This document shows positions 1,627 to 28,200 of a DNA stretch of 59,568 bases, piece after piece. Below the pieces are notes generated by a model that had not been told where the DNA came from, ran no database searches, and saw only the letters and a program-made list of their open reading frames with translations. The stretch's first letter is position 1. Every line of letters starts with the position of its first letter. The DNA comes from an uncultured Candidatus Saccharibacteria bacterium (GTDB taxonomy: Bacteria > Patescibacteriota > Minisyncoccia > Phycocordibacterales > UBA5272). The stretch covers positions 1-59,568 of the forward strand of contig CAYOQQ010000003.1 of assembly GCA_964406165.1 (NCBI GenBank). The letters are read 5' to 3'. Both the position numbers and the translations under genes were made by a program.

Positions 1627-2736
1627 CTATGCAGCCTTCCTCTCACCGTAGGTAAGCGTCATTCGCTCCTCGTTTGCATCAAAGAGAGTGATAGAGAACT
1701 TGTAACTCTTTCCAAGAGTAAGAGTTGAGCGAAGCTTCGCTTCATCTCCGAAGTCTGATACATGAACAAGACCTGCTACACCTTCCTCGATAGAAACGAG
1801 TGCTCCGTGCTTGTTGAACTTAATCACAACACCCGCAACTTCATCTCCCTTCTTGTACTTCTTAGCAGCTTCCTTCCATGGGTTTTCCTTAAGAGCCTTA
1901 AGTGAAAGTGAAATCTTGTTATCCTTCACTTCAATAATTTTAGCGCGAACCTTATCTCCAACACGAGCATGTGCCTTAGTGTCTTCAACAAGACCCCAAT
2001 CGATCTCACTCTTGTGAACTAGACCTTCAACACCGTCAGTAAGTTTAATGAAGATACCGAACTCAACAACACCTGTAACTGTTCCTTCTACCTCATCACC
2101 AACAGAGTAGGTGCCAAGAGCAACCTCCTTTGTTTCTTTAGATGATCCACCGTCCTTTTCTGAGAAGATAAGTTTACCTTCCTTAGGAATAGCTGAGATA
2201 ATAGAAACAGAAATACGCTTACCAATAAGCTTCTTGAGCTCACGGAGAATCTTATCCTTATCACCATCCTCGATACGTGGGTACTTGTCTTCCTTGAGCT
2301 GGGATGCAGGGAGGAATCCTGACATACCTTGCCATTCGATAATAAGACCACCTTTGTTAGCGTCCTTAACAACGAGGTCCATAATACGCTTATCTTTGAT
2401 TGCTTGTTCAGCATCATTCCACATAAGCGCTTGACGAGCTTCCTTAAGAGAAAGTTCGACATACCCATTCTTGTTCTCACGAAGAACAATCTTCGCAGAA
2501 ATAGTATCACCAATATTGATACGCTTAATAACATCACGCGCATTCATGAACTCGATACCGTAAATGATACCTGTTCCTGCAACACCAAGGTCTACGTAGA
2601 GTGCTGATTTTTCAATCGCTACGATGATACCTTCTGTGATGTCTTCTTCCTTAAAAATAACTGCATCTACCGCGTATGGCGCGATAACTTGCTCTCCTTT
2701 TGTAACTGTTGTTGTCATAAAAATATAAATTCCCAC
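1627..2736 (-). CDS. rpsA: 30S ribosomal protein S1 (four S1 domains). The start may be the ATG at 2718.
   Basis: Repeated S1-domain signatures, e.g. GDEVEGTVTGVVEFGIFIKL..GLVHKSE and GDEVAGVVIKFNKHGALVSI..GLVHVSD. Confidence 0.85.
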   Translation of the reverse strand: MGIYIFMTTTVTKGEQVIAPYAVDAVIFKEEDITEGIIVAIEKSALYVDLGVAGTGIIYGIEFMNARDVIKRINIGDTISAKIVLRENKNGYVELSLKEARQALMWNDAEQAIKDKRIMDLVVKDANKGGLIIEWQGMSGFLPASQLKEDKYPRIEDGDKDKILRELKKLIGKRISVSIISAIPKEGKLIFSEKDGGSSKETKEVALGTYSVGDEVEGTVTGVVEFGIFIKLTDGVEGLVHKSEIDWGLVEDTKAHARVGDKVRAKIIEVKDNKISLSLKALKENPWKEAAKKYKKGDEVAGVVIKFNKHGALVSIEEGVAGLVHVSDFGDEAKLRSTLTLGKSYKFSITLFDANEERMTLTYGERKAA

Positions 2737-3189: not shown

Positions 3190-3233
3190 ATTGATCCCTC
3201 CATGTAGTTAAAACAGGGGCTCCCTGATAGTTA

Positions 3234-3261: not shown

Positions 3262-3324
3262 ATTACTATTTAGTTATTATAAAATAATTATTAAGACTTG
3301 TTGGGTGTGTGGTTATAAAAGTTG

Positions 3325-3390
3325 ATGTCGAAATGTGCTCGTTAGCGTCCAGGACGTGACTTTGCTAAGTCAGACATCATTTTGCTCGGC
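3325..3390 (+). repeat. Palindromic unit / micro-ORF family, copy 1 (32-nt insert, in-frame TAG at codon 7)
   Basis: ATGTCGAAATGTGCTC + 32 nt + GACATCATTTTGCTCGGC. The termini match copies 2 and 3. Confidence 0.7.
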
Positions 3391-3400
3391 TATGTTATCT

Positions 3401-3448
3401 ATGTCGAAATGTGCTCATTTCGACATCATTTTGCTCGGCGCAAAATGA
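3401..3448 (+). repeat. Palindromic unit / micro-ORF family, copy 2 (minimal form; could encode MSKCAHFDIILLGAK)
   Basis: ATGTCGAAAT-GTGCTC-ATTTCGACAT is a 10-bp perfect stem. It is followed by the CATTTTGC-TCGGC-GCAAAATG hairpin. Confidence 0.7.
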
Positions 3449-3449
3449 G

Positions 3450-3478
3450 AAAACCGCGCGACTCACGTCGGGCGGTTT
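3450..3478. terminator. GC-rich hairpin shared by convergent transcripts (unit copies on +, ORF132 transcript on -)
   Basis: AAAACCGCGCG-ACTCACGT-CGGGCGGTTT. On the minus strand a T-rich tract follows it. Confidence 0.6.
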
Positions 3479-3479
3479 G

Positions 3480-3672
3480 GATGGTTCCCTTTTCCCCAAA
3501 GCTAAGCTTTGGTCGGGGCGAGGTGATCCTCTAGCGGTCCATCAGAAGTGACAGGGCCTTTCGCCTATCCTTCTTACCTCTACGCCGGATTGTCTGTCCG
3601 GCCTATTTACCTGTAATAACTCATGTGCAGGGTCTCCTGGGTTGTGGCATTGTTGTAAAGGCGGCTGACAGC
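3480..3672 (-). ncRNA. GC-rich structured 3' segment of the ORF132 transcript (unclassified)
   Basis: Several stable hairpins on the minus strand: GCCGGA-CAGACAA-TCCGGC, CCAAAGC-TTA-GCTTTGG and a GGC-GAAAG-GCC loop. No convincing ORF. It ends at the terminator at 3450-3478. Confidence 0.4.
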
Positions 3673-3810
3673 TTAGCGCTGCCAGGGCTTCGGTGCGGTG
3701 CGAGCAATAGCTCGCACCGTCTTGTGCCGCCCACGCAGAGTGTTCTGCGGGGGCTTGCACTTCGGGATAGGGTAGCGCGGAATGAATTCCGGCGGATCCC
3801 AAACAAACAT
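3673..3810 (-). CDS. Candidate 45-aa basic, Pro-rich micro-protein. An alternative 65-aa form starts at 3870 in a TAATG overlap with ORF132.
   Basis: AAAGGAGAGAC precedes the ATG at 3810. The longer frame begins with the ATG that overlaps the ORF132 stop codon. Confidence 0.3.
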   Translation of the reverse strand: MFVWDPPEFIPRYPIPKCKPPQNTLRGRHKTVRAIARTAPKPWQR

Positions 3811-3869
3811 GTCTCTCCTTTCGAATACCCTAAGAATGTCTAGGGGCCGAATGTGGAAGATTAGCAACA

Positions 3870-4268
3870 TTAGAATCTGACATTTACACGACGACGGTCC
3901 TTGTACTTGTCATTTCGGCCATGACGAGAGTATGACCGTTCTTCTTGGTGCACAAGTTTGGCACTGTAGAGATGTCCACGAAGGATGTACTCAGGGCAGT
4001 CTGCCGGCTTTCGAAAAGCTTCGCGCAAACCAGAGGACTGTTGGGTCCACTCATCGCGAGCACGAGGCTCGTCGATGCAGGTCTTGCGACGCGGCTTTGC
4101 CGGTTCGAGGACTTCTGGTGTCCACGCGATTTCTCCGTGGGTCTCCTTACGTACCTTGTAGAGGTCCGTGCCAGCCATGTTGTTCAAGGTTTCCTTGAGC
4201 GTGCTGGTGAGGGGGACATATCGTGCCGAGACACGAACCGGAATTCCGTTGAAACTTTGCAAACGCAT
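3870..4268 (-). CDS. GC-rich 132-aa protein, unknown function
   Basis: AAGGAGAAAAG precedes the ATG at 4268. Third-codon positions are G/C-biased, unlike neighbouring genes. The tracked ORF start at 4328 overlaps the promoter, so the start was trimmed. Confidence 0.65.
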   Translation of the reverse strand: MRLQSFNGIPVRVSARYVPLTSTLKETLNNMAGTDLYKVRKETHGEIAWTPEVLEPAKPRRKTCIDEPRARDEWTQQSSGLREAFRKPADCPEYILRGHLYSAKLVHQEERSYSRHGRNDKYKDRRRVNVRF

Positions 4269-4319
4269 CTTTTCTCCTTGGGTTAAATTGGTATTATGGG
4301 AAACAACTAAACTGTATAT

Positions 4320-4347
4320 ATTATACACGAAATATATATTTTGTCAA
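4320..4347 (-). promoter_or_regulatory. Near-consensus sigma70 promoter TTGACA-N16-TATAAT driving ORF132
   Basis: The reverse complement of 4320-4347 gives both consensus hexamers. Confidence 0.75.
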
Positions 4348-4454
4348 GTAATATTCTTTACAAACTTGACAAATAGTGTATTAAAATATGACCTTTGATA
4401 AGGGTTAAAATGCTTTATTTATATGTGTTTTCGAGGATTTATACAAAATAGTTT

Positions 4455-4598
4455 ATGTCGAAATTTGCTAGTTCTTATGTCTCTAGACGAGACATTGCGA
4501 AGCGAATTGAAGCTTTTTTGTTAAGGAACGCTTCGCTTACAAAAAACTTCAATTCGGACATCATTTTGCTCGGCGCAAAAAGAAAACCGCCATCATGA
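4455..4598 (+). repeat. Palindromic unit / micro-ORF family, copy 3 (long insert; open 47-codon frame MSKFASS...SDIILLGAKRKPPS)
   Basis: ATGTCGAAATTTGCTA ... GACATCATTTTGCTCGGCGCAAAAAG. The termini are shared with copies 1 and 2. TATACA lies 9 nt upstream of the ATG. Confidence 0.6.
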
Positions 4599-4623
4599 TT
4601 ATTCATCATTTTGGCGGTGTTTT
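4583..4623. terminator. Hairpin shared by unit copy 3 (+) and the 49-aa ORF (-)
   Basis: ACCGCCA..ATGAT-GAATA-ATCAT..TGGCGGT, with T-rich tracts on both sides. Confidence 0.65.
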
Positions 4624-4639
4624 ACTCCCTTTGCTGAGA

Positions 4640-4789
4640 TCAGTGGAGTTGCATCTCGGGAACTTCCACGGCATGGACGATGTCGTCCATGCCGATGCTG
4701 ATGCCTTGCTCGACGTTGCCGTCAAACATGGCATCAAGAACATTGTGCTCTTCGAGTGATACTGCGGCCTGGAACAGTGCTTCGTTCAC
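4640..4789 (-). CDS. Candidate 49-aa acidic micro-protein (GTG start)
   Basis: AGAAAGG lies 5 nt before the GTG. The frame is GC-rich, has its own TTGATA-N16-TATAAT promoter and is followed by a terminator. It is below the ORF-track size cut-off. Confidence 0.35.
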   Translation of the reverse strand: MNEALFQAAVSLEEHNVLDAMFDGNVEQGISIGMDDIVHAVEVPEMQLH

Positions 4790-4845
4790 GATTGCCTTTC
4801 TGCCCTAGTGGGCAATGATGCTTCTCAACATGAGGAGCAATGTAT

Positions 4846-4873
4846 ATTATACATTATTTATGTAATTTATCAA
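4846..4873 (-). promoter_or_regulatory. Sigma70-type promoter TTGATA-N16-TATAAT for the 49-aa ORF
   Basis: Read from the reverse complement of 4846-4873. Confidence 0.6.
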
Positions 4874-12180: not shown

Positions 12181-12960
12181 ATGAAAAAATTATTTATCCT
12201 TGCTGGTGTTTCATTTGCAACCGGGCTACTCTTTACATCAATAGCATCCGCCCAACTAACAGCAACTGGAGTGCAGCAAGGTATGGGTACATTCGCAGAT
12301 ATTATTAATACATTTAATACTACGATTGTAAAAGCCCTAGGTACTCTTTTCATGGCAGGAGGTGTGGTGGCGTTCTTTTTCGGTCTTGCGAATTTTATTT
12401 GGGGACTACGACAGGGAGATACGAATGTTATAAAAAATGGTAAGCAGTTTATGATCTGGTCTCTCGTTGCGCTCTTTGTGATGTTCTCTGTGTATGGAAT
12501 TATTAAGTTCGCTCAGAGTATGTTCCCAGGACTTGGTGATAACACTATTACTATTCCAGATGTACGATACCAAGGTGGGGGTGGTGCAGCAGGAGGAAAC
12601 ACTGGCGGTGGAGCTGCAGGTGGTGGAGCGGCAGGCGGAGGCGCCGGAGGAGGTGCAGCAGGCGGAGGAACATCAGGTGGTACGACAGGGGGAGGTACTA
12701 CAGGTGGTGGCACCGCAGGTGGCGGGACAGCACTTAAAGCTAATAGTGAGGTATGTACAGCAAATGACCAATGTCTAAGTAACTACTGTAATATGGGTCC
12801 ATACGGTGGCCAATGTGCAGTAAATACATCTACACTTAAAGCAAATGGAGAACAATGCACCTTACCAGAACAATGTGTTAGTGGCTATTGCCAGCCTACA
12901 CAAATGGGTTCAGTGTGTGCACCGCCTGCAGATTTAAATACTAACGGAGGTCCATCATAA
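12181..12960 (+). CDS. T4SS-pilin-like protein with a Gly-rich linker and two C-terminal Cys4 modules
   Basis: Signal peptide (..SIASAQ), two TM helices, a GGxxG-type tract of about 50 aa, then two LKAN-x-C-x5-C-x4-C-x8-9-C repeats. Confidence 0.65.
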   Translation: MKKLFILAGVSFATGLLFTSIASAQLTATGVQQGMGTFADIINTFNTTIVKALGTLFMAGGVVAFFFGLANFIWGLRQGDTNVIKNGKQFMIWSLVALFVMFSVYGIIKFAQSMFPGLGDNTITIPDVRYQGGGGAAGGNTGGGAAGGGAAGGGAGGGAAGGGTSGGTTGGGTTGGGTAGGGTALKANSEVCTANDQCLSNYCNMGPYGGQCAVNTSTLKANGEQCTLPEQCVSGYCQPTQMGSVCAPPADLNTNGGPS

Positions 12961-18677: not shown

Positions 18678-19463
18678 ATGAAAAAAATGCAAAGAATCCT
18701 CTTCTGTGCTTTTCTAGCACTGATGGGGTTTGTCAGCGTCTCGTATGCTGGACCTGTTAACTTGGGGGCACCAATTGGTGCGACTCAAGCAGCAGACACT
18801 TGGTACACGGATCGGTACGCACCGAATGGTTGGTCGTACGATGGTGGGTCTGGAGTTTTGACTCAGACCATCGATGCTTCTGACCGTCTTGCTGCACGGC
18901 CGAACGGATTCAATAGTTTGTTCTATGACACCCAGGGCAGGAAGTATGACTTTGCTGACGGTGTTACGACAATGAGTGTCGAGTTGTATGTTTCTGGGGA
19001 CCCTCTTCAGCAACGTTTGGCGGGATTTTGGGGCACTACTGTTGATGTGACCAGCCAAATCTCATTCTTCCCGATTTTGGAATTTGCAGCAGATGGAACC
19101 GGGCCACGTTTCCAAGGTTGGAATGGTGTAGCCTTCAATAGCTATGGATTGTCGCCATCATTTGCGTACGATGCATGGCATGAGCTTCGCATTGTTCTGG
19201 ATACGACTGCTGATGAATTCAATTACTTGCTTGATGGTAATCTTCTCGGAAGTGTTGGTGCTGATGGCAGTATCCAATTTGCAAATGTGATCTTGCAAGG
19301 TTACAACAAATTTTCCGTTGATCAAGGGGATTATTCCCTTCAATGGCGAAATTTGCAGACAGGACCTGACAGCAGTGTTCCTGAGCCGGGCACCTTTGCG
19401 CTCATCGGTATTGCAGGCCTCGGCCTTGTGCTGACCCGTCGCAAGACGTTTGCCAAAGCGTAA
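18678..19463 (+). CDS. Secreted protein with a C-terminal PEP-CTERM sorting signal
   Basis: Signal peptide. The C-terminus VPEPGTFALIGIAGLGLVLTRRK is the canonical PEP + TM helix + Arg cluster. AAGGAG SD. Visibly GC-richer than the core genes. Confidence 0.8.
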   Translation: MKKMQRILFCAFLALMGFVSVSYAGPVNLGAPIGATQAADTWYTDRYAPNGWSYDGGSGVLTQTIDASDRLAARPNGFNSLFYDTQGRKYDFADGVTTMSVELYVSGDPLQQRLAGFWGTTVDVTSQISFFPILEFAADGTGPRFQGWNGVAFNSYGLSPSFAYDAWHELRIVLDTTADEFNYLLDGNLLGSVGADGSIQFANVILQGYNKFSVDQGDYSLQWRNLQTGPDSSVPEPGTFALIGIAGLGLVLTRRKTFAKA

Positions 19464-19720: not shown

Positions 19721-19791
19721 GGGCCTATAGTTTAGTGGCAGAACAACGGCCTCCAAATCCGTTGGTCGAGGTTCGATTCCTCGTGGGCCCG
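19721..19791 (+). tRNA. trnW: tRNA-Trp (anticodon CCA)
   Basis: Cloverleaf folded by hand: acceptor GGGCCTA/TGGGCCC, anticodon loop CTCCAAA, T arm CGAGG-TTCGATT-CCTCG, discriminator G. Confidence 0.85.
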
Positions 19792-23892: not shown

Positions 23893-24663
23893 TTAGTAGT
23901 CCTTCTTTCTAAATGCTCTTTGCGTTATAACAAGAAGAAGCAGTGCATAGGAAAGCGCATATAGTGTAGAGACTGCAAGGATACCAAATGATGGAATAAT
24001 TCCGTGAATGATGTCATTTCTGATGTTAAATTTCTCAAGGTTCGGAAGGATATAGTACACCGCTTCAGCTGCCACTTTAATCGCAGGGATTTTGGTTGTC
24101 ATGAACATATATCTAAAAATTCCCTCAGCATGCCCGATAATAAAAATCGAAACAGTTGAGACCGATGCAAGGATAGGGGAGGTGATACCAGAAAAGAGAA
24201 TAGAAATAAGAATAAGAAGAATCGCTTCAAGTGTACTCATAAACACTGAAGCAAGTATCGGCAAGAAAAAGATGCTACCACCTTGGATAAACAAAATACC
24301 GTACAAAACTGCTGTAGATAGAAGTGTTACAACAACAGTAGTGAGTGTAAGACCAAGACATTTACCGATGATAACTTCAGTCTGAGTGACAGGTTTTGGT
24401 AAAAGGAGATAAAATGTCTTTCGCTCTATCTCTTTATAGATAAGCATGCTTCCGATAAAAATAGCTACGAATATTTGAAGAGCGTAGATAGCAGTTGTAC
24501 TAAAGTCGATAATCATTCTAGTACTTTGTTCAAGCGAGATGGACGCGATGAATAAGGTAAAGACAATCATTGCAACAATAACGAAGAATGCAGAGAGAAG
24601 AATTCTGTCCCTAACTGTTTCCCTGAACGTATTTTTTGAAATGGCGAGAATATTGGTGAGCAT
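23893..24663 (-). CDS. ABC-2 type transporter permease
   Basis: Six predicted TM helices. Lies 12 nt downstream of the ATPase gene. Confidence 0.65.
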   Translation of the reverse strand: MLTNILAISKNTFRETVRDRILLSAFFVIVAMIVFTLFIASISLEQSTRMIIDFSTTAIYALQIFVAIFIGSMLIYKEIERKTFYLLLPKPVTQTEVIIGKCLGLTLTTVVVTLLSTAVLYGILFIQGGSIFFLPILASVFMSTLEAILLILISILFSGITSPILASVSTVSIFIIGHAEGIFRYMFMTTKIPAIKVAAEAVYYILPNLEKFNIRNDIIHGIIPSFGILAVSTLYALSYALLLLVITQRAFRKKDY

Positions 24664-24674
24664 GGTTGTTATGA

Positions 24675-25463
24675 TTATAGTCCTGTAGTTATGTGGCCTT
24701 TTGCAGTGCGAACTTTTTCAATCATTTTTACAAAGGCGTCTTCAAGGTCACGGTGACCGTGGCTTAATTTTGCCGGTGTGTCAACAGCGAGGATTTCGCC
24801 ATTATCGATAACACCAACTTTGTCACACACTTCTGCAACGTCACCTAAGATGTGTGTATTAATAAAGATAGTCTTACCTTGTTTTTTGAGTGCTAGGATT
24901 ATTTTTTTAACTTCAGCACGACCAAGAGGGTCTAGTCCATCAAGTGGTTCATCTAAGAAAAGAATTTCCGGGTCATTAATAATTGCTTGAGCAAGTCCTA
25001 GTCTTTGGAGCATTCCTTTAGAATACGCACGAATACGCTTATCTTTTGCATGAGCAAGATTTACTTCTTTAAGAACGTTGTCAATTTTAGATTCTTTATT
25101 TTTTATTGTAAAGAGTGTTGCTACGAAGTCTAAAAATTCACCACCTGTTAAATATTGATAAAAAAGAGGGGATTCTGGCATGAACCCAAGAACCTGTTTT
25201 ACCTTTTGTTCATCAGGTGAACCTCCTTTAATGGTGATTGTTCCACTTGTTGGACGAGATAATCCTACAAGCATTTTTATGGTTGAGGTTTTCCCTGCAC
25301 CATTTGGGCCAATAAAACCAAACACTGTACCTTTCTCAACAGTAAGGGAGATATTTTTTACTACATGAGCTTTCTTCTTACCAGTGCCGTACGTCTTTGA
25401 AAGGTTGGAAATAATAATATCGTTCATGAATTCTATGGTATCAGAAATTGACTGACTTGACAA
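24675..25463 (-). CDS. ABC transporter ATP-binding protein. The probable start is the ATG at 25427.
   Basis: Walker A GPNGAGKTS, signature YSKGMLQRL, Walker B ILFLDEP. TTGTCA-N17-TACCAT lies 7 nt before the ATG at 25427. Confidence 0.9.
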   Translation of the reverse strand: MSSQSISDTIEFMNDIIISNLSKTYGTGKKKAHVVKNISLTVEKGTVFGFIGPNGAGKTSTIKMLVGLSRPTSGTITIKGGSPDEQKVKQVLGFMPESPLFYQYLTGGEFLDFVATLFTIKNKESKIDNVLKEVNLAHAKDKRIRAYSKGMLQRLGLAQAIINDPEILFLDEPLDGLDPLGRAEVKKIILALKKQGKTIFINTHILGDVAEVCDKVGVIDNGEILAVDTPAKLSHGHRDLEDAFVKMIEKVRTAKGHITTGL

Positions 25464-25494
25464 AAATAATTAACATGATATCATGGTATATGAA

Positions 25495-25893
25495 TGTTCG
25501 TTTAGGCTGGTAACCGAAATGTAGGGATTCCGGCCGGATCCCTGAAATAAAGTGAACATTCCCTGTAAGCATAAGGCACCCATTGGACCTACAGAGGACT
25601 AACCTCCTCCTGTGGCCAACGTGCAGATGTTATCAGGGCCTACCTGGCCCTGTTGCACTTCGTTTCGCAAACGTCGTGTGCAGCCGGTGTTAGTGACGCA
25701 CGGTAGAGGCGTGCGAGTCATCAGAAGAAGATCTTGCAGTTCTTCCTATAGGAGCAGATGGGACAAGAGGTATTCTTACGTGATGCGTGCAAGAGCGCGA
25801 CCGGTCGATGGAAATCTTTGGGGATTTAAGCCCCTCCATGCGACCGGTCGCGAGATCGGCAACAACAAACGAGATTCAGTTCTCGTTTTTTTT
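25495..25893 (+). ncRNA. Free-standing GC-rich structured RNA candidate (unclassified)
   Basis: Promoter TTGACA (25457-25462) plus TGGTATAT (25484-25491). Many stable hairpins, including a 17-bp stem (25796-25812 with 25835-25852). Terminator ACGAGA-TTCAGT-TCTCGT followed by T8. The overlapping tracked ORF is Arg/Cys/Ser-rich and does not look like a protein. Confidence 0.55.
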
Positions 25894-25947
25894 ATTGTTT
25901 ATACAACGAGGCACAAGAATGACTTAGTACTATATACTAGTAACTAT

Positions 25948-27048
25948 ATGAAATCTGTGTCCCTCTTAGCTCGTCTGTCCCGGTATTATTTTCTCAGTTT
26001 TGGAATTATTTTTGTAACAAGCTTTAATGTTATTTTCGCTCAAACAGAAGAAGCCACACAGGTAAAGCATTCTTATTTCGATACTCTTGCAAACATTGGC
26101 TGGCTACTTGGTACTACTACTATTATTTTTCTAATCTATTGGTGGGATAGACATAGTAAAGATGAAGAAGGGAAAGGGTTTGTTGCTCAAGATTATGAAG
26201 TGCCAGATAATTTAACACCAATTGAAGTGAGTGCTATCGTGTACCAAAAAGTTACGTATACTAGTATTTTTGCTGAATTGGTGTATCTAGCCACTAAAGG
26301 ATATATACAAATTAAACAGATAGATGTCCCGCTTGAGATGTACCCAGAAAAGATTGTTACGTATTCTAAGGGTGAATTTATGGGGAAAGACTTTGCGCTT
26401 ACACTCTGTAAACCACCATCTACGCTTACTAATCTTTTTGATAGAGTACTTCTTGAGCGAATTTTTGATTTTGGAATAACTGATGGTGGTGTTAGGATTG
26501 TGTACCTTTCACGAATTTCTGATTCATTTTATTACGATGCTGAACGAATAGGGGTTATGGCCTGTGAAGGATTGCTTCTTAAAGGATACTATAAATATTT
26601 AGGCAAGTTACGAAAAACGACATTACTTGGTATATTACCCAGCCATTTAATAGTGCCAATAAGTACCTATGTATCATATGTTGTGCTTTATGTGGCTTTG
26701 ATTGATGAATCATTTCGGGTCTTCTATTTTCTTTTTGGGGTTGTGGCTACTGTACTTGTTTTTGTATATATAAGTCCAGCCAAAACTCAAAAAGGAATGT
26801 ATGCAAAAGAATCATTACTCGGACTTAAGCAGTACATGAATGTTATTGAGAAGGATAGAATTTATTTTCATAATGCACCATATAAGCGTCCAGAACAGTT
26901 CGAGGAGTTACTTCCTTTTGCAATGGTGCTTGGAGTTGATCGTGCATGGGTACGAGAATTCGAAGGTATTTATACTAAACCGAATGCATTAAACTCAATA
27001 GATCTCGTCAGTCTTGCGAGCTGGTTGTCTACACCGTCACCACGATAA
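25948..27048 (+). CDS. DUF2207 C-terminal-half paralog (no ectodomain, no Gly tail)
   Basis: YEVPDNLTPIEVSAIVYQ..LVYLATKGYIQIKQI and ..YFHNAPYKRPEQFEELLPFAMVLGVD.. align with 20139..22046. TATACT lies 9 nt before the ATG. Confidence 0.7.
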   Translation: MKSVSLLARLSRYYFLSFGIIFVTSFNVIFAQTEEATQVKHSYFDTLANIGWLLGTTTIIFLIYWWDRHSKDEEGKGFVAQDYEVPDNLTPIEVSAIVYQKVTYTSIFAELVYLATKGYIQIKQIDVPLEMYPEKIVTYSKGEFMGKDFALTLCKPPSTLTNLFDRVLLERIFDFGITDGGVRIVYLSRISDSFYYDAERIGVMACEGLLLKGYYKYLGKLRKTTLLGILPSHLIVPISTYVSYVVLYVALIDESFRVFYFLFGVVATVLVFVYISPAKTQKGMYAKESLLGLKQYMNVIEKDRIYFHNAPYKRPEQFEELLPFAMVLGVDRAWVREFEGIYTKPNALNSIDLVSLASWLSTPSPR

Positions 27049-27138
27049 GATTTTGAATAATGTACTTAATAAAAAACTTTTATTAAAAGTAGTTATCAAC
27101 TAGTGGTAGTAGTGTGTTGAGGATATACTGTCATGTAT

Positions 27139-28200
27139 ATGGACAAAAAAATTCGCGTAGGTATTAATGGTTTTGGGCGTATCGGAAGAGCGTTCTTTAA
27201 AGTTGCTTTTGAACGTGACGATATGGAGGTGGTTGCAGTTAACGATTTAGGTGATGTGCATAATCTCGCATACCTTCTTCAATACGACACTGTATACCGC
27301 GTATCACATTTTGATGTGCATGCGGAGATACATGAAGATACTCATGAACAGTATCTTATTGTCGATAGTGAAGCTAAGACAATGAGAATAAAAGTGATCC
27401 AAGAAAAAGATCCTGCTACTATTCCTTGGGGAGAAAACGCGGTTGATGTTGTTGTTGAGTCTACTGGACTCTTTGTTGCATACGACAAAGCTTCAGCGCA
27501 CCTTAAGGGTGGGGCAAAAGCAGTCGTTATATCTGCTCCGGCTAAGAAAGGTGAAGATGAGTCTGTTAAGGGTGAAACTATCTTGCTTGGGGTTAATGAA
27601 GATAAGTTCGGTACATGCTCTGTAACCTCTAATGCATCATGTACAACTAACGCTTCATCTCCTGTTATTGCTATATTAGATGAAGCTATAGGTATCGAAA
27701 AAGCGATTTTAAATACAGTCCATTCATACACTGCATCACAAGGAATTGTTGATGGTCCTAATAAAAAAGATTTCCGCGAAGGGCGTGCAGCCGCACAGAA
27801 TATTGTGCCATCTTCAACTGGAGCTGCAATTGCAGTAACAAAAGCTTTTCCTAAGTTAGAAGGGCTCTTTGATGGTATCTCTATTCGTGTACCAACTCCA
27901 GCTGGGTCAATTGCTGATATTACGTTTATCTCTAAGCGACCAACAACAGTAGAAGAAGTTAATCAGGCACTGAAGGATGCATCTATTTCTGAGAGATGGA
28001 GTACGATTTTTCAATCAACAGAAGAAGAACTTGTATCAAGTGATATTCTAGGACTTCCATACGCATCAATCGCTGACCTTAAGATGACAAGAGTTGTTGG
28101 AGGTAACCTTGTAAAGGTGATGGCATGGTATGACAATGAGATGGGGTACACTCATACTCTTGTTGAACATGTGGCGAAGGTGGGCCAGAAGTTACAGTAA
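27139..28200 (+). CDS. gap: Glyceraldehyde-3-phosphate dehydrogenase, type I
   Basis: GINGFGRIGR and SNASCTTN motifs. TATACT (27124-27129) favours the ATG at 27139 over the ATG at 27133. Confidence 0.93.
   Translation: MDKKIRVGINGFGRIGRAFFKVAFERDDMEVVAVNDLGDVHNLAYLLQYDTVYRVSHFDVHAEIHEDTHEQYLIVDSEAKTMRIKVIQEKDPATIPWGENAVDVVVESTGLFVAYDKASAHLKGGAKAVVISAPAKKGEDESVKGETILLGVNEDKFGTCSVTSNASCTTNASSPVIAILDEAIGIEKAILNTVHSYTASQGIVDGPNKKDFREGRAAAQNIVPSSTGAAIAVTKAFPKLEGLFDGISIRVPTPAGSIADITFISKRPTTVEEVNQALKDASISERWSTIFQSTEEELVSSDILGLPYASIADLKMTRVVGGNLVKVMAWYDNEMGYTHTLVEHVAKVGQKLQ

Follow-up and report, generated by a model that had tools for sequence, protein, structure and literature searches.

We describe here a structured RNA gene predicted at positions 25492-25893, plus strand, of contig CAYOQQ010000003.1, within a stretch of 59,568 nucleotides (nt) that was analysed as a whole and is called the window below. 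The segment very probably encodes a genuine, independently transcribed structured non-coding RNA (ncRNA) of a new family, a prediction made from its own sequence and from that of its relatives. The full statement, which adds action in trans in the form of a scaffold or ribonucleoprotein, is favoured with distinctly less confidence. More tentative still is the proposal that the RNA may be the founding member of a new class in the candidate phyla radiation (CPR, or Patescibacteria), namely a three-domain particle with a loop-to-tail pseudoknot and with a biochemical role of its own, not that of a regulator of its neighbours. The family is new at the level of Rfam; as a kind, a stand-alone structured ncRNA gene is conventional. 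An earlier note on this DNA had proposed a free-standing structured RNA of about 400 nt, and this proposal is supported by a conserved promoter and terminator belonging to the RNA itself, by homologues and by covariation. The gene and its signals are as follows.

25492-25893, plus strand: structured RNA gene, 402 nt, the single full-length nhmmer match in the window.
25457-25484, plus strand: RNA promoter, with -35 TTGACA (25457-25462), a 16-nt spacer and the extended -10 TGaTATCAT (25476-25484).
25867-25893, plus strand: intrinsic terminator, AAACGAGA-UUCAGU-UCUCGUUU and a U run (terminator scan; hairpin 25867-25888).

In the promoter scan this site matched 11 of 12 consensus positions (hexamer TATCAT at 25479-25484) and carried the preceding TG. 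G25492, the putative +1, lies exactly 7 nt past the -10 and is the first base of helix P1. The same arrangement was found in all five homologues: CTTGACA, a spacer of 16-17 nt, TGnTAT(A/C)(A/C)T, exactly 7 nt, and then GAATG(T/C)TC. It is a conserved promoter, predicted to be of the sigma-70 type with an extended -10. The TTGACA pointed out in the earlier note was recovered by the scan at the same place. Its choice of extended -10, TGGTATAT, would need a 24-nt spacer and gives way to TGaTATCAT, conserved in 5/5 homologues; its RNA start at 25495 is 3 nt late, G25492 being the most likely start. At the other end, the clean terminator that it had read as ACGAGA-TTCAGT-TCTCGT plus T8 was found again by scanning as an 8-bp hairpin followed by T8, and an 8-bp hairpin with 7-9 U occurs in all five homologues. 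All pairs of the terminator helix hold (100% paired), and 2 of them are compensatory, both in L007 (CCAAGA/UCUUGG).

The homologues come from Paceibacterota metagenome-assembled genomes (MAGs) and SRA assemblies. DNA runs from samples with these organisms are SRR23823934/32, SRR28892619 and SRR20217179. Loci holding orthologues of the neighbouring, highly conserved ABC ATPase gene were collected, with ±2.5-3.5 kb of sequence around the relatives' genes, and were then searched by nhmmer, first with the RNA and afterwards with a profile of five sequences. Homologues do exist, four of them distinct from the window RNA (loci L003/L004, L086, L008 and L007). In L003 and L004, both SRA assemblies, relatives of the downstream DUF2207_C gene (80% amino-acid identity) have upstream regions 87-91% identical to the RNA. 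The other three were found by nhmmer.

L086, 456-49, minus strand of the locus: full-length RNA homologue.
L008 (MAG JAYWBQ01), 1144-679: full-length RNA homologue.
L007 (MAG JAYTIW01), 3423-2977: full-length RNA homologue.

The RNA homologues are 395-466 nt long. For the same genome pairs, identity is 53-70% in the RNA and 78-81% in the adjacent ATPase gene, which argues that selection acts on structure and not on sequence.

The five sequences were aligned with MAFFT (alignment A2; 511 columns, 65% mean column identity), and RNAalifold gave a three-domain fold of 107 pairs, 35 of them with compensatory changes. With this consensus structure 90.5% of the cells in A2 are paired. Pairs showing a double change numbered 37, compared with 17.6 ± 3.0 in column shuffles (0/500) and with 5-8 when the partners were slid by 1-3 columns; further pair types numbered 74 compared with 61.5 ± 3.2 (0/500). 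Because the consensus structure was derived from the same alignment, the count was redone with the minimum free energy (MFE) structure of the window sequence only, and 32 double-change pairs were obtained against 18.6 ± 2.9 in shuffles (0/500) and 8-13 after sliding. The covariation check that the earlier note had suggested therefore supports the fold, with five sequences, beyond both the shuffled and the slid controls. In addition, G-U pairs (53) far outnumber A-C pairs (14), and the plus strand is therefore taken as the folded one. The fold is composed of the following elements.

25492-25561, plus strand: domain 1, in which P1 closes a three-way junction with P1a and P1b.
25492-25503 with 25550-25561, plus strand: P1, 12 pairs, 94.8% paired, 2 compensatory.
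25507-25513, plus strand: loop CUGGUAA of P1a, a 2-bp hairpin.
25523-25544, plus strand: P1b hairpin, 8 pairs, 5 compensatory (the window register is one column off in the MAFFT alignment).
25563-25683, plus strand: domain 2, in which P2 encloses P2a, P2b and P2c.
25563-25567 with 25679-25683, plus strand: P2, CUGUA/UGCAG, 2 compensatory pairs.
25568-25572 with 25627-25631, plus strand: base of P2a, AGCAU/AUGUU, 100% paired (columns 101-105/194-198).
25576-25579 with 25621-25624, plus strand: middle of P2a.
25593-25607, plus strand: tip of P2a, variable, 4/5 pairs compensatory.
25631-25655, plus strand: P2b, 6/10 pairs compensatory.
25656-25678, plus strand: P2c.
25684-25859, plus strand: domain 3, with P3a, P3b, P3c and an optional closing helix.
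25697-25715, plus strand: P3a.
25717-25784, plus strand: P3b, a long element with nearly invariant strands AAGAA/UUCUU and AUUCUUACGUGA; inner helix 4/5 compensatory.
25796-25812 with 25835-25852, plus strand: P3c, a 17-bp stem with a conserved 1-nt bulge in the 3' arm, 92.9% paired, 5 compensatory.
25684-25688 with 25855-25859, plus strand: optional closing helix CCGGU/AUCGG, which pairs in 4/5 sequences and fails in L007.
25507-25511 with 25855-25859, plus strand: candidate pseudoknot between loop CUGGU (YUGRU) and AUCGG, 5 pairs, 100% paired in 5/5 sequences.
25846-25866, plus strand: the most conserved block, UCGCGAGAUCGG(C)(A)ACAACAA, made up of the 3' base of P3c, the strand that would enter the pseudoknot and a single-stranded tail rich in CA.

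Helices that had been picked out by eye at 25523-25544 (AGGGATTC/GGATCCCT), 25631-25655 (CAGGGCC/GGCCCTG) and 25660-25674 (CGTTT/AAACG) are all present in this fold and carry compensatory changes in the homologues. The 17-bp stem noted with them is also present and covaries (25796-25812/25835-25852), while the palindrome CGACCGGTCG around which it was said to be built is unconserved and merely reflects the two arms of the helix. Thus the P3c arms read CGCGACCGGUCG/CGACCGGUCGCG in the window, CGCGAUCGGUC/GACCGAUCGCG in L008 and CGCGAUCGACC/GGUCGAUCGCG in L007. P3b holds a further covarying hairpin that the alignment did not capture (UCCUAU...AUGGGA in the window, CCCAU...AUGGG in L086, GCCAU...AUGGC in L008). 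At the 3' end, TCGCGAGATCGG is invariant in 5/5 homologues and is followed by the CA-rich tail and the terminator hairpin. The AUCGG at 25855-25859 has two competing partners, the closing helix strand CCGGU and the domain-1 loop YUGRU. The loop-to-tail pseudoknot, which shows two one-sided changes (C-G/U-G and G-U/A-U), seems the better candidate for a domain-closing pairing than the CCGGU helix, and the evidence for this preference is suggestive.

The region differs in composition from its surroundings. GC content is 0.53-0.54 across 25500-25799 compared with 0.34-0.40 in the flanks (200-nt windows), as the earlier note had seen; it is 0.512 over the RNA and 0.405 over the whole window. The MFE of the RNA is -150 kcal/mol (z = -4.1 against dinucleotide shuffles). 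The minus strand of the region also folds (z = -4.4), and the strand is therefore not identifiable from folding energy alone. The sole open reading frame (ORF) that spans the RNA (25612...) prolongs the DUF2207 frame in the upstream direction, and its translation is rich in Arg, Cys and Ser. When the window is compared with L003, this frame is broken by indels whose lengths are not multiples of three, and the long open segments of the homologues differ in frame and position, leaving no conserved reading frame. This agrees with the view that the ORF does not look like a protein. A comparison of the concatenated six-frame translations of the five RNAs with a protein database, in which RNA homologues wrongly annotated as ORFs would have shown up, found nothing. 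The RNA lies in a 520-nt intergenic region with the ABC ATPase on one side and the DUF2207_C paralogue on the other, and Pfam matches and gene positions bear out its placement between a divergent ABC operon and a short DUF2207 paralogue. The neighbouring features are listed below.

24675-25427, minus strand: ABC ATPase (Pfam ABC_tran), part of an ABC-2-type transporter operon.
23893-24663, minus strand: permease of this operon.
Minus strand, in the same operon: unannotated 290-aa protein (hyp290).
25948-27048, plus strand: short DUF2207 paralogue with the C-terminal DUF2207 domain only (DUF2207_C).
27133-28200, plus strand: GAPDH, after the DUF2207_C paralogue.
25435-25463, minus strand: promoter-like site of the divergent ABC ATPase, TTGTCA, 17 nt, TACCAT, and 7 nt to the ATG at 25427.
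25933-25950, plus strand: promoter-like TATACT of the DUF2207_C paralogue, 9 nt 5' of the ATG at 25948, with a presumed promoter function.

The ATPase site gave 9/12 consensus matches plus TG in the promoter scan. The RNA and ATPase promoters stand back to back, with their -35 elements on the same base pairs (TTGACA/TTGTCA), and the ATPase messenger RNA (mRNA) is probably leaderless. TATACT beside an ATG also precedes GAPDH in the window (27124-27141) and GAPDH in loci with and without the RNA. A longer GAPDH block, GTTATCAACTAG...TATACT, is kept whether or not a locus has the RNA, and in the window it stands behind the intervening gene. Since this motif of their own is kept with or without the RNA, the downstream genes appear independent of the RNA promoter. 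More generally, -10-like hexamers (TACCAT, TATACT) were seen 3-9 nt before start codons at the window sites and at GAPDH in L006-L009, which suggests that leaderless mRNAs may be common in this lineage.

In the ATPase-orthologue loci of Candidatus Paceibacterota (Parcubacteria), the backbone of hyp290, permease and ATPase reading one way and GAPDH the other is conserved, and the slot between ATPase and GAPDH is a hot spot where gene content changes from genome to genome at ATPase identities of 70-90%. Wherever the RNA occurs it adjoins the ATPase promoter and is oriented towards GAPDH. It lies directly between ATPase and GAPDH in L007, and the DUF2207_C gene stands 3' of it in the window and in L003. 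In L008 the gene of a 455-aa PG_binding_1 protein is inserted between ATPase and RNA; a transposase had been considered for this ORF and was rejected once the PG_binding_1 domain was found. The insertion, about 2.3 kb, lies between the two copies of a 109-nt direct duplication (94.5% identical; 1162-1267 and 3452-3560) made up of the ATPase 5' end and the shared promoter, and this leaves a pseudo-5' end of the ATPase beside the RNA promoter. Loci without the RNA have ATPases just as similar (70-90% identity). Their slot holds a conserved 108-aa ORF without Pfam match (L006, L009, L087/88, L092, L217) or a Ham1 gene (L089-91), or is only 50-240 nt long (L005, L010-13, L213/214, L216); L220 has an unrelated AT-rich upstream region and no RNA. 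Seven further ATPase-orthologue look-ups gave, besides L086, RNA-free loci or a contig that ends at the promoter (L221, where the end falls inside the RNA promoter). In four SRA assemblies (L220, L221, L086 and L004) the contig breaks within or right beside the RNA or its promoter, which may reflect strain-level variation in the slot.

Searches beyond these loci added no member. nhmmer found no other copy of the RNA in the whole window and no further copy in the 1.2 Mb of collected sequence; blastn found no match in phage genomes, and a scan of genome contigs gave no relatives through the DUF2207_C paralogue. The metagenome pattern TTCTTACGTGA-N55-85-GCGAGATCGG had 0 matches. The looser pattern TCGCGAGATCGG-N0-4-CAACAA was met in at least 120 JGI metagenome stretches and one from IMG/VR; these were set aside as chance occurrences, the nhmmer matches covering the pattern region only. 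The RNA family is rare and so far confined to one narrow Paceibacterota clade. A different case is L001 (GCA_043760235.1, JAYUPH010000041.1), which has a DUF2207_C orthologue (63% identity) preceded by another GC-rich sequence (1-200) with two near-identical hairpins (CCUCCGUGGCGUAAGCCCGGGG, CCCUGUGGCGUCAGCCCAGGG) and three others, cut off by the contig end. This sequence has no similarity to the RNA described here and no Rfam match, and may be a second RNA of another kind in the same position.

Known RNA families were examined with cmscan and Rfam 15 (4,227 families; E<=10 corresponds to about 14-16 bits). At gathering thresholds only tRNA-Trp (19721-19791) was found in the whole window, and at E<=1 nothing relevant. 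At E<=10, 25400-25950 gave only a snoRNA-like noise match, and L007, L008 and L086 only noise, with no match to RNase P RNA, transfer-messenger RNA (tmRNA), signal recognition particle (SRP) RNA or 6S RNA. The Rfam check proposed in the earlier note thus returned no gathering-threshold match and only noise at E<=10, for the window RNA and three homologues alike. ARAGORN found no tmRNA and only tRNA-Trp in the window; no T-loop motif is present in the RNAs, and the RNA ends in a terminator. The SRP helix 8 motif (GNAR loop, GGAAGCAGCC-type symmetric loop) is unconserved, and no Rfam SRP model matched at E<=10. For 6S there was no RF00013 match at E<=10, and the fold has three domains over 395-466 nt, not a single hairpin of about 180 nt. 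Riboswitch and T-box models gave only PreQ1 noise, in L007 and on the wrong strand (14 bits, E = 3.6). For RNase P, models RF00010 and RF00011 had no match at E<=10 in the window RNA, L007, L008 or L086. In the five RNAs the best CR-I strings (GGAAAGUCC) had 2-3 mismatches at non-homologous positions, and no CR-V string (ACAGAA..CGGCUUA) with 4 or fewer mismatches was found. The 5' end pairs locally with nt 59-70, which is not the terminal P1 of an RNase P type. The absence of RNase P, tmRNA and SRP core motifs, reported before from inspection by eye, is confirmed by motif search, Rfam and ARAGORN; the segment GGAGCAGATGGG, which had been likened to RNase P CR-III, is not conserved in the homologues. 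The family is absent from Rfam 15 and was not found in a literature search.

The above results leave four other explanations to be weighed. The main rival, which we regard as unlikely, is that the element is a very long cis-acting leader, riboswitch-like or a protein-dependent attenuator, that controls read-through into GAPDH and the pentose-phosphate cluster (the DUF2207 paralogue being an insertion here), the hairpin and U8 being its expression platform. The RNA is indeed always upstream of and co-oriented with GAPDH, its terminator lies 55-130 nt ahead of the next start codon, and an invariant GCGAGA (25848-25853) duplicates the terminator 5' arm (ACGAGA), so that an antiterminator with UCUCG is possible. 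However, three domains and 400-466 nt are far above known riboswitch aptamers, no Rfam cis-regulatory family matches, and the first downstream gene varies (DUF2207_C in the window and L003, GAPDH in L007 and L008). Moreover, the promoter-like GAPDH block is kept irrespective of the RNA, and many relatives express the same genes without such an element. It is also rather improbable that the RNA or its DNA belongs to an accessory or mobile cassette that settles at a hot spot of recombination, with the ABC operon on one side and GAPDH on the other; an example would be a defence- or element-associated RNA whose protein partner is encoded elsewhere. Such a cassette would fit the patchy presence of the RNA and a slot that is highly variable among genomes with ATPases 85-90% identical, where the RNA, the RNA plus DUF2207_C, the 108-aa ORF, Ham1, the PG_binding_1 gene with its 109-nt duplication, or nothing is found. 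Yet the window holds one RNA copy, no integrase, transposase or reverse transcriptase is adjacent, no terminal repeats surround the RNA, and no phage-genome or IMG/VR match was found; its position is always identical, with the -35 region shared with the ATPase promoter, as fits vertical descent with losses.

That the RNA is an extremely diverged housekeeping RNA missed by the Rfam models, most plausibly RNase P RNA, is highly improbable. The size, GC-richness, multi-domain fold and long-range pairing are alike, and misses at Rfam default settings are reported for some CPR genomes (PMC8172020): Lui et al. (2021) needed lowered thresholds for RNase P RNA in 10/35 circular CPR genomes. The Rfam model did recover the diverged CPR RNase P RNAs of that study once the thresholds were lowered (PMC8172020), whereas four of the RNAs studied here remain without a match even at E<=10. 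Neither CR-I nor CR-V occurs at a consistent position, P1 joins the 5' end to nt 59-70 and not to the 3' end, and the gene is missing from the syntenic slot in close relatives, where it might have another location; it also evolves faster than the neighbouring protein gene, the opposite of what housekeeping RNAs do. Finally, it is scarcely credible that the segment is non-functional and folds by chance, being a decayed gene or a GC-rich relic of foreign DNA. The window does contain another GC-rich, apparently foreign island (3300-4860), and the minus strand folds too (z = -4.4). Against this stand compensatory changes in more than 30 pairs, the conserved promoter and terminator, the G-U/A-C asymmetry, and invariant blocks across lineages that are only 53-70% identical; covariation largely refutes this explanation.

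The structured ncRNA gene of a new family thus remains the preferred explanation. The domain-1 loop YUGRU would pair with the invariant 3' tail AUCGG and so hold the 5' and 3' domains together as a compact particle. The RNA might then act in trans as a folded molecule, as a protein-binding scaffold, as a ribonucleoprotein component or possibly as a catalyst, and the invariant paired strands (AAGAA/UUCUU, AUUCUUACGUGA, GCGCGA...UCGCGAGAUCGG) would be its likely recognition surfaces. We infer function as a folded particle because the sequence drifts fast while the helices are rigorously maintained, a few paired blocks stay invariant, and the proposed tertiary pairing would compact the molecule; this profile appears unlike that of a base-pairing small RNA, an antisense regulator or a leader. 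The RNA is presumably accessory and not essential, since many close relatives have the same chromosomal slot without it.

Several points weigh against this reading. The alignment has five sequences from one narrow clade, which limits statistical power, and the pair-type measure is non-significant for the window-only structure (264/500). In the pseudoknot no pair has changed on both sides. At least 17 related loci have an ABC-ATPase/GAPDH slot without the RNA, which fits an accessory role and equally a dispensable or decaying element. The gene context gives no cue to function, and a scaffold or ribonucleoprotein would be the default proposal for such an RNA. The terminator could also serve as an attenuator, as the invariant GCGAGA just upstream can pair with its 3' arm.

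Other parts of the window show features of their own. The GC-rich island at 3300-4860 (up to 0.63 compared with 0.405) contains no Pfam-recognisable ORFs and has no Rfam match. Two direct repeats each occur there three times, ATGTCGAAATGTGCTC at about 3317, 3393 and 4447 and GACATCATTTTGCTCGGC(GCAAAA) at about 3368, 3417 and 4552, and a hairpin-rich non-coding stretch of about 400 nt lies at about 3440-3860. The island looks like foreign or mobile DNA, or is possibly another structured RNA. At 2740-2830, directly upstream of the ribosomal protein S1 gene (1627-2736, minus strand), there is a GC-rich hairpin-forming sequence that may be a 5' untranslated region element. Its 22-nt repeat CCATCTAGTCAAAACAGGGGCT recurs 403 nt away (3200-3221) with 91% identity, without an Rfam match. 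The highest GC of the window (0.69) is at 12483-12820, inside ORF 12181-12960, and is probably a low-complexity coding region. Beside tRNA-Trp, a 261-aa ORF (18678-19463) ends in a C-terminal PEP-CTERM sorting motif (Pfam E = 9.4e-6), an uncommon find in a CPR bacterium with a small genome.

Bacterial RNAs of several hundred nt with elaborate conserved folds are rare. Such large RNAs have proved to be ribozymes, ribonucleoprotein cores or unusual assemblies, as with RNase P, tmRNA, group I and II introns, OLE, ROOL and GOLLD. The RNA repertoire of CPR bacteria, whose genomes are tiny and streamlined, is poorly charted. A 400-nt RNA kept under structural selection in a streamlined genome points to a function worth its cost, and, if the proposal of a new class holds, it would be a ribonucleoprotein core or ribozyme in organisms with tiny genomes. 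With its defined ends, secondary-structure model and natural variants, the RNA is a concrete clonable candidate for biochemistry, while the narrow, patchy distribution limits the generality of any new biology.

When compared with known systems, the RNA resembles each of them in part. T-box and riboswitch leaders likewise carry an intrinsic terminator upstream of metabolic genes, and the 5' loop GG(N)UGGUA(A/C)CC superficially resembles the UGGN-ACC motif of T-boxes. In contrast to them, the loop motif is at the extreme 5' end rather than in an antiterminator, L007 reads UGAU in place of UGGU, no model matches, and the downstream genes have promoters of their own. A T-box reading of the GGNUGGUAACC loop was rejected because of where the loop lies, because it varies in L007 and because no model matches it. 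RNase P RNA is similar in length (about 400 nt), in its GC-rich multi-helix junctions and in a probable long-range pairing that involves the 3' region. It differs in having the P4 core (CR-I, CR-V), a 5'-3' terminal P1 and a covariance-model match, whereas the RNA described here evolves quickly and is not universal at its locus. With 6S and Ms1 RNAs the RNA described here has in common the independently transcribed, abundant type, a strong promoter and terminator of its own, and conservation of structure over sequence, although the 6S fold is one rod, about 180 nt long and with a central bubble, and the present RNA is twice as long, with three junction domains. The last comparison is with OLE, ROOL, GOLLD and the raiA motif. 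The present RNA has no Rfam 15 match and comes from Paceibacterota, another phylum; it is smaller than OLE, ROOL and GOLLD, and no phage or tRNA association was seen. Like the members of this group, it is stand-alone, hundreds of nt long and folded into several domains with covariation; it is also GC-rich in an AT-rich genome, restricted to a lineage, and found in a context that is silent on function. Large orphan RNAs have typically been spotted by just such a signature, the long GC-rich intergenic region (PMC8723152, PMC11109978).

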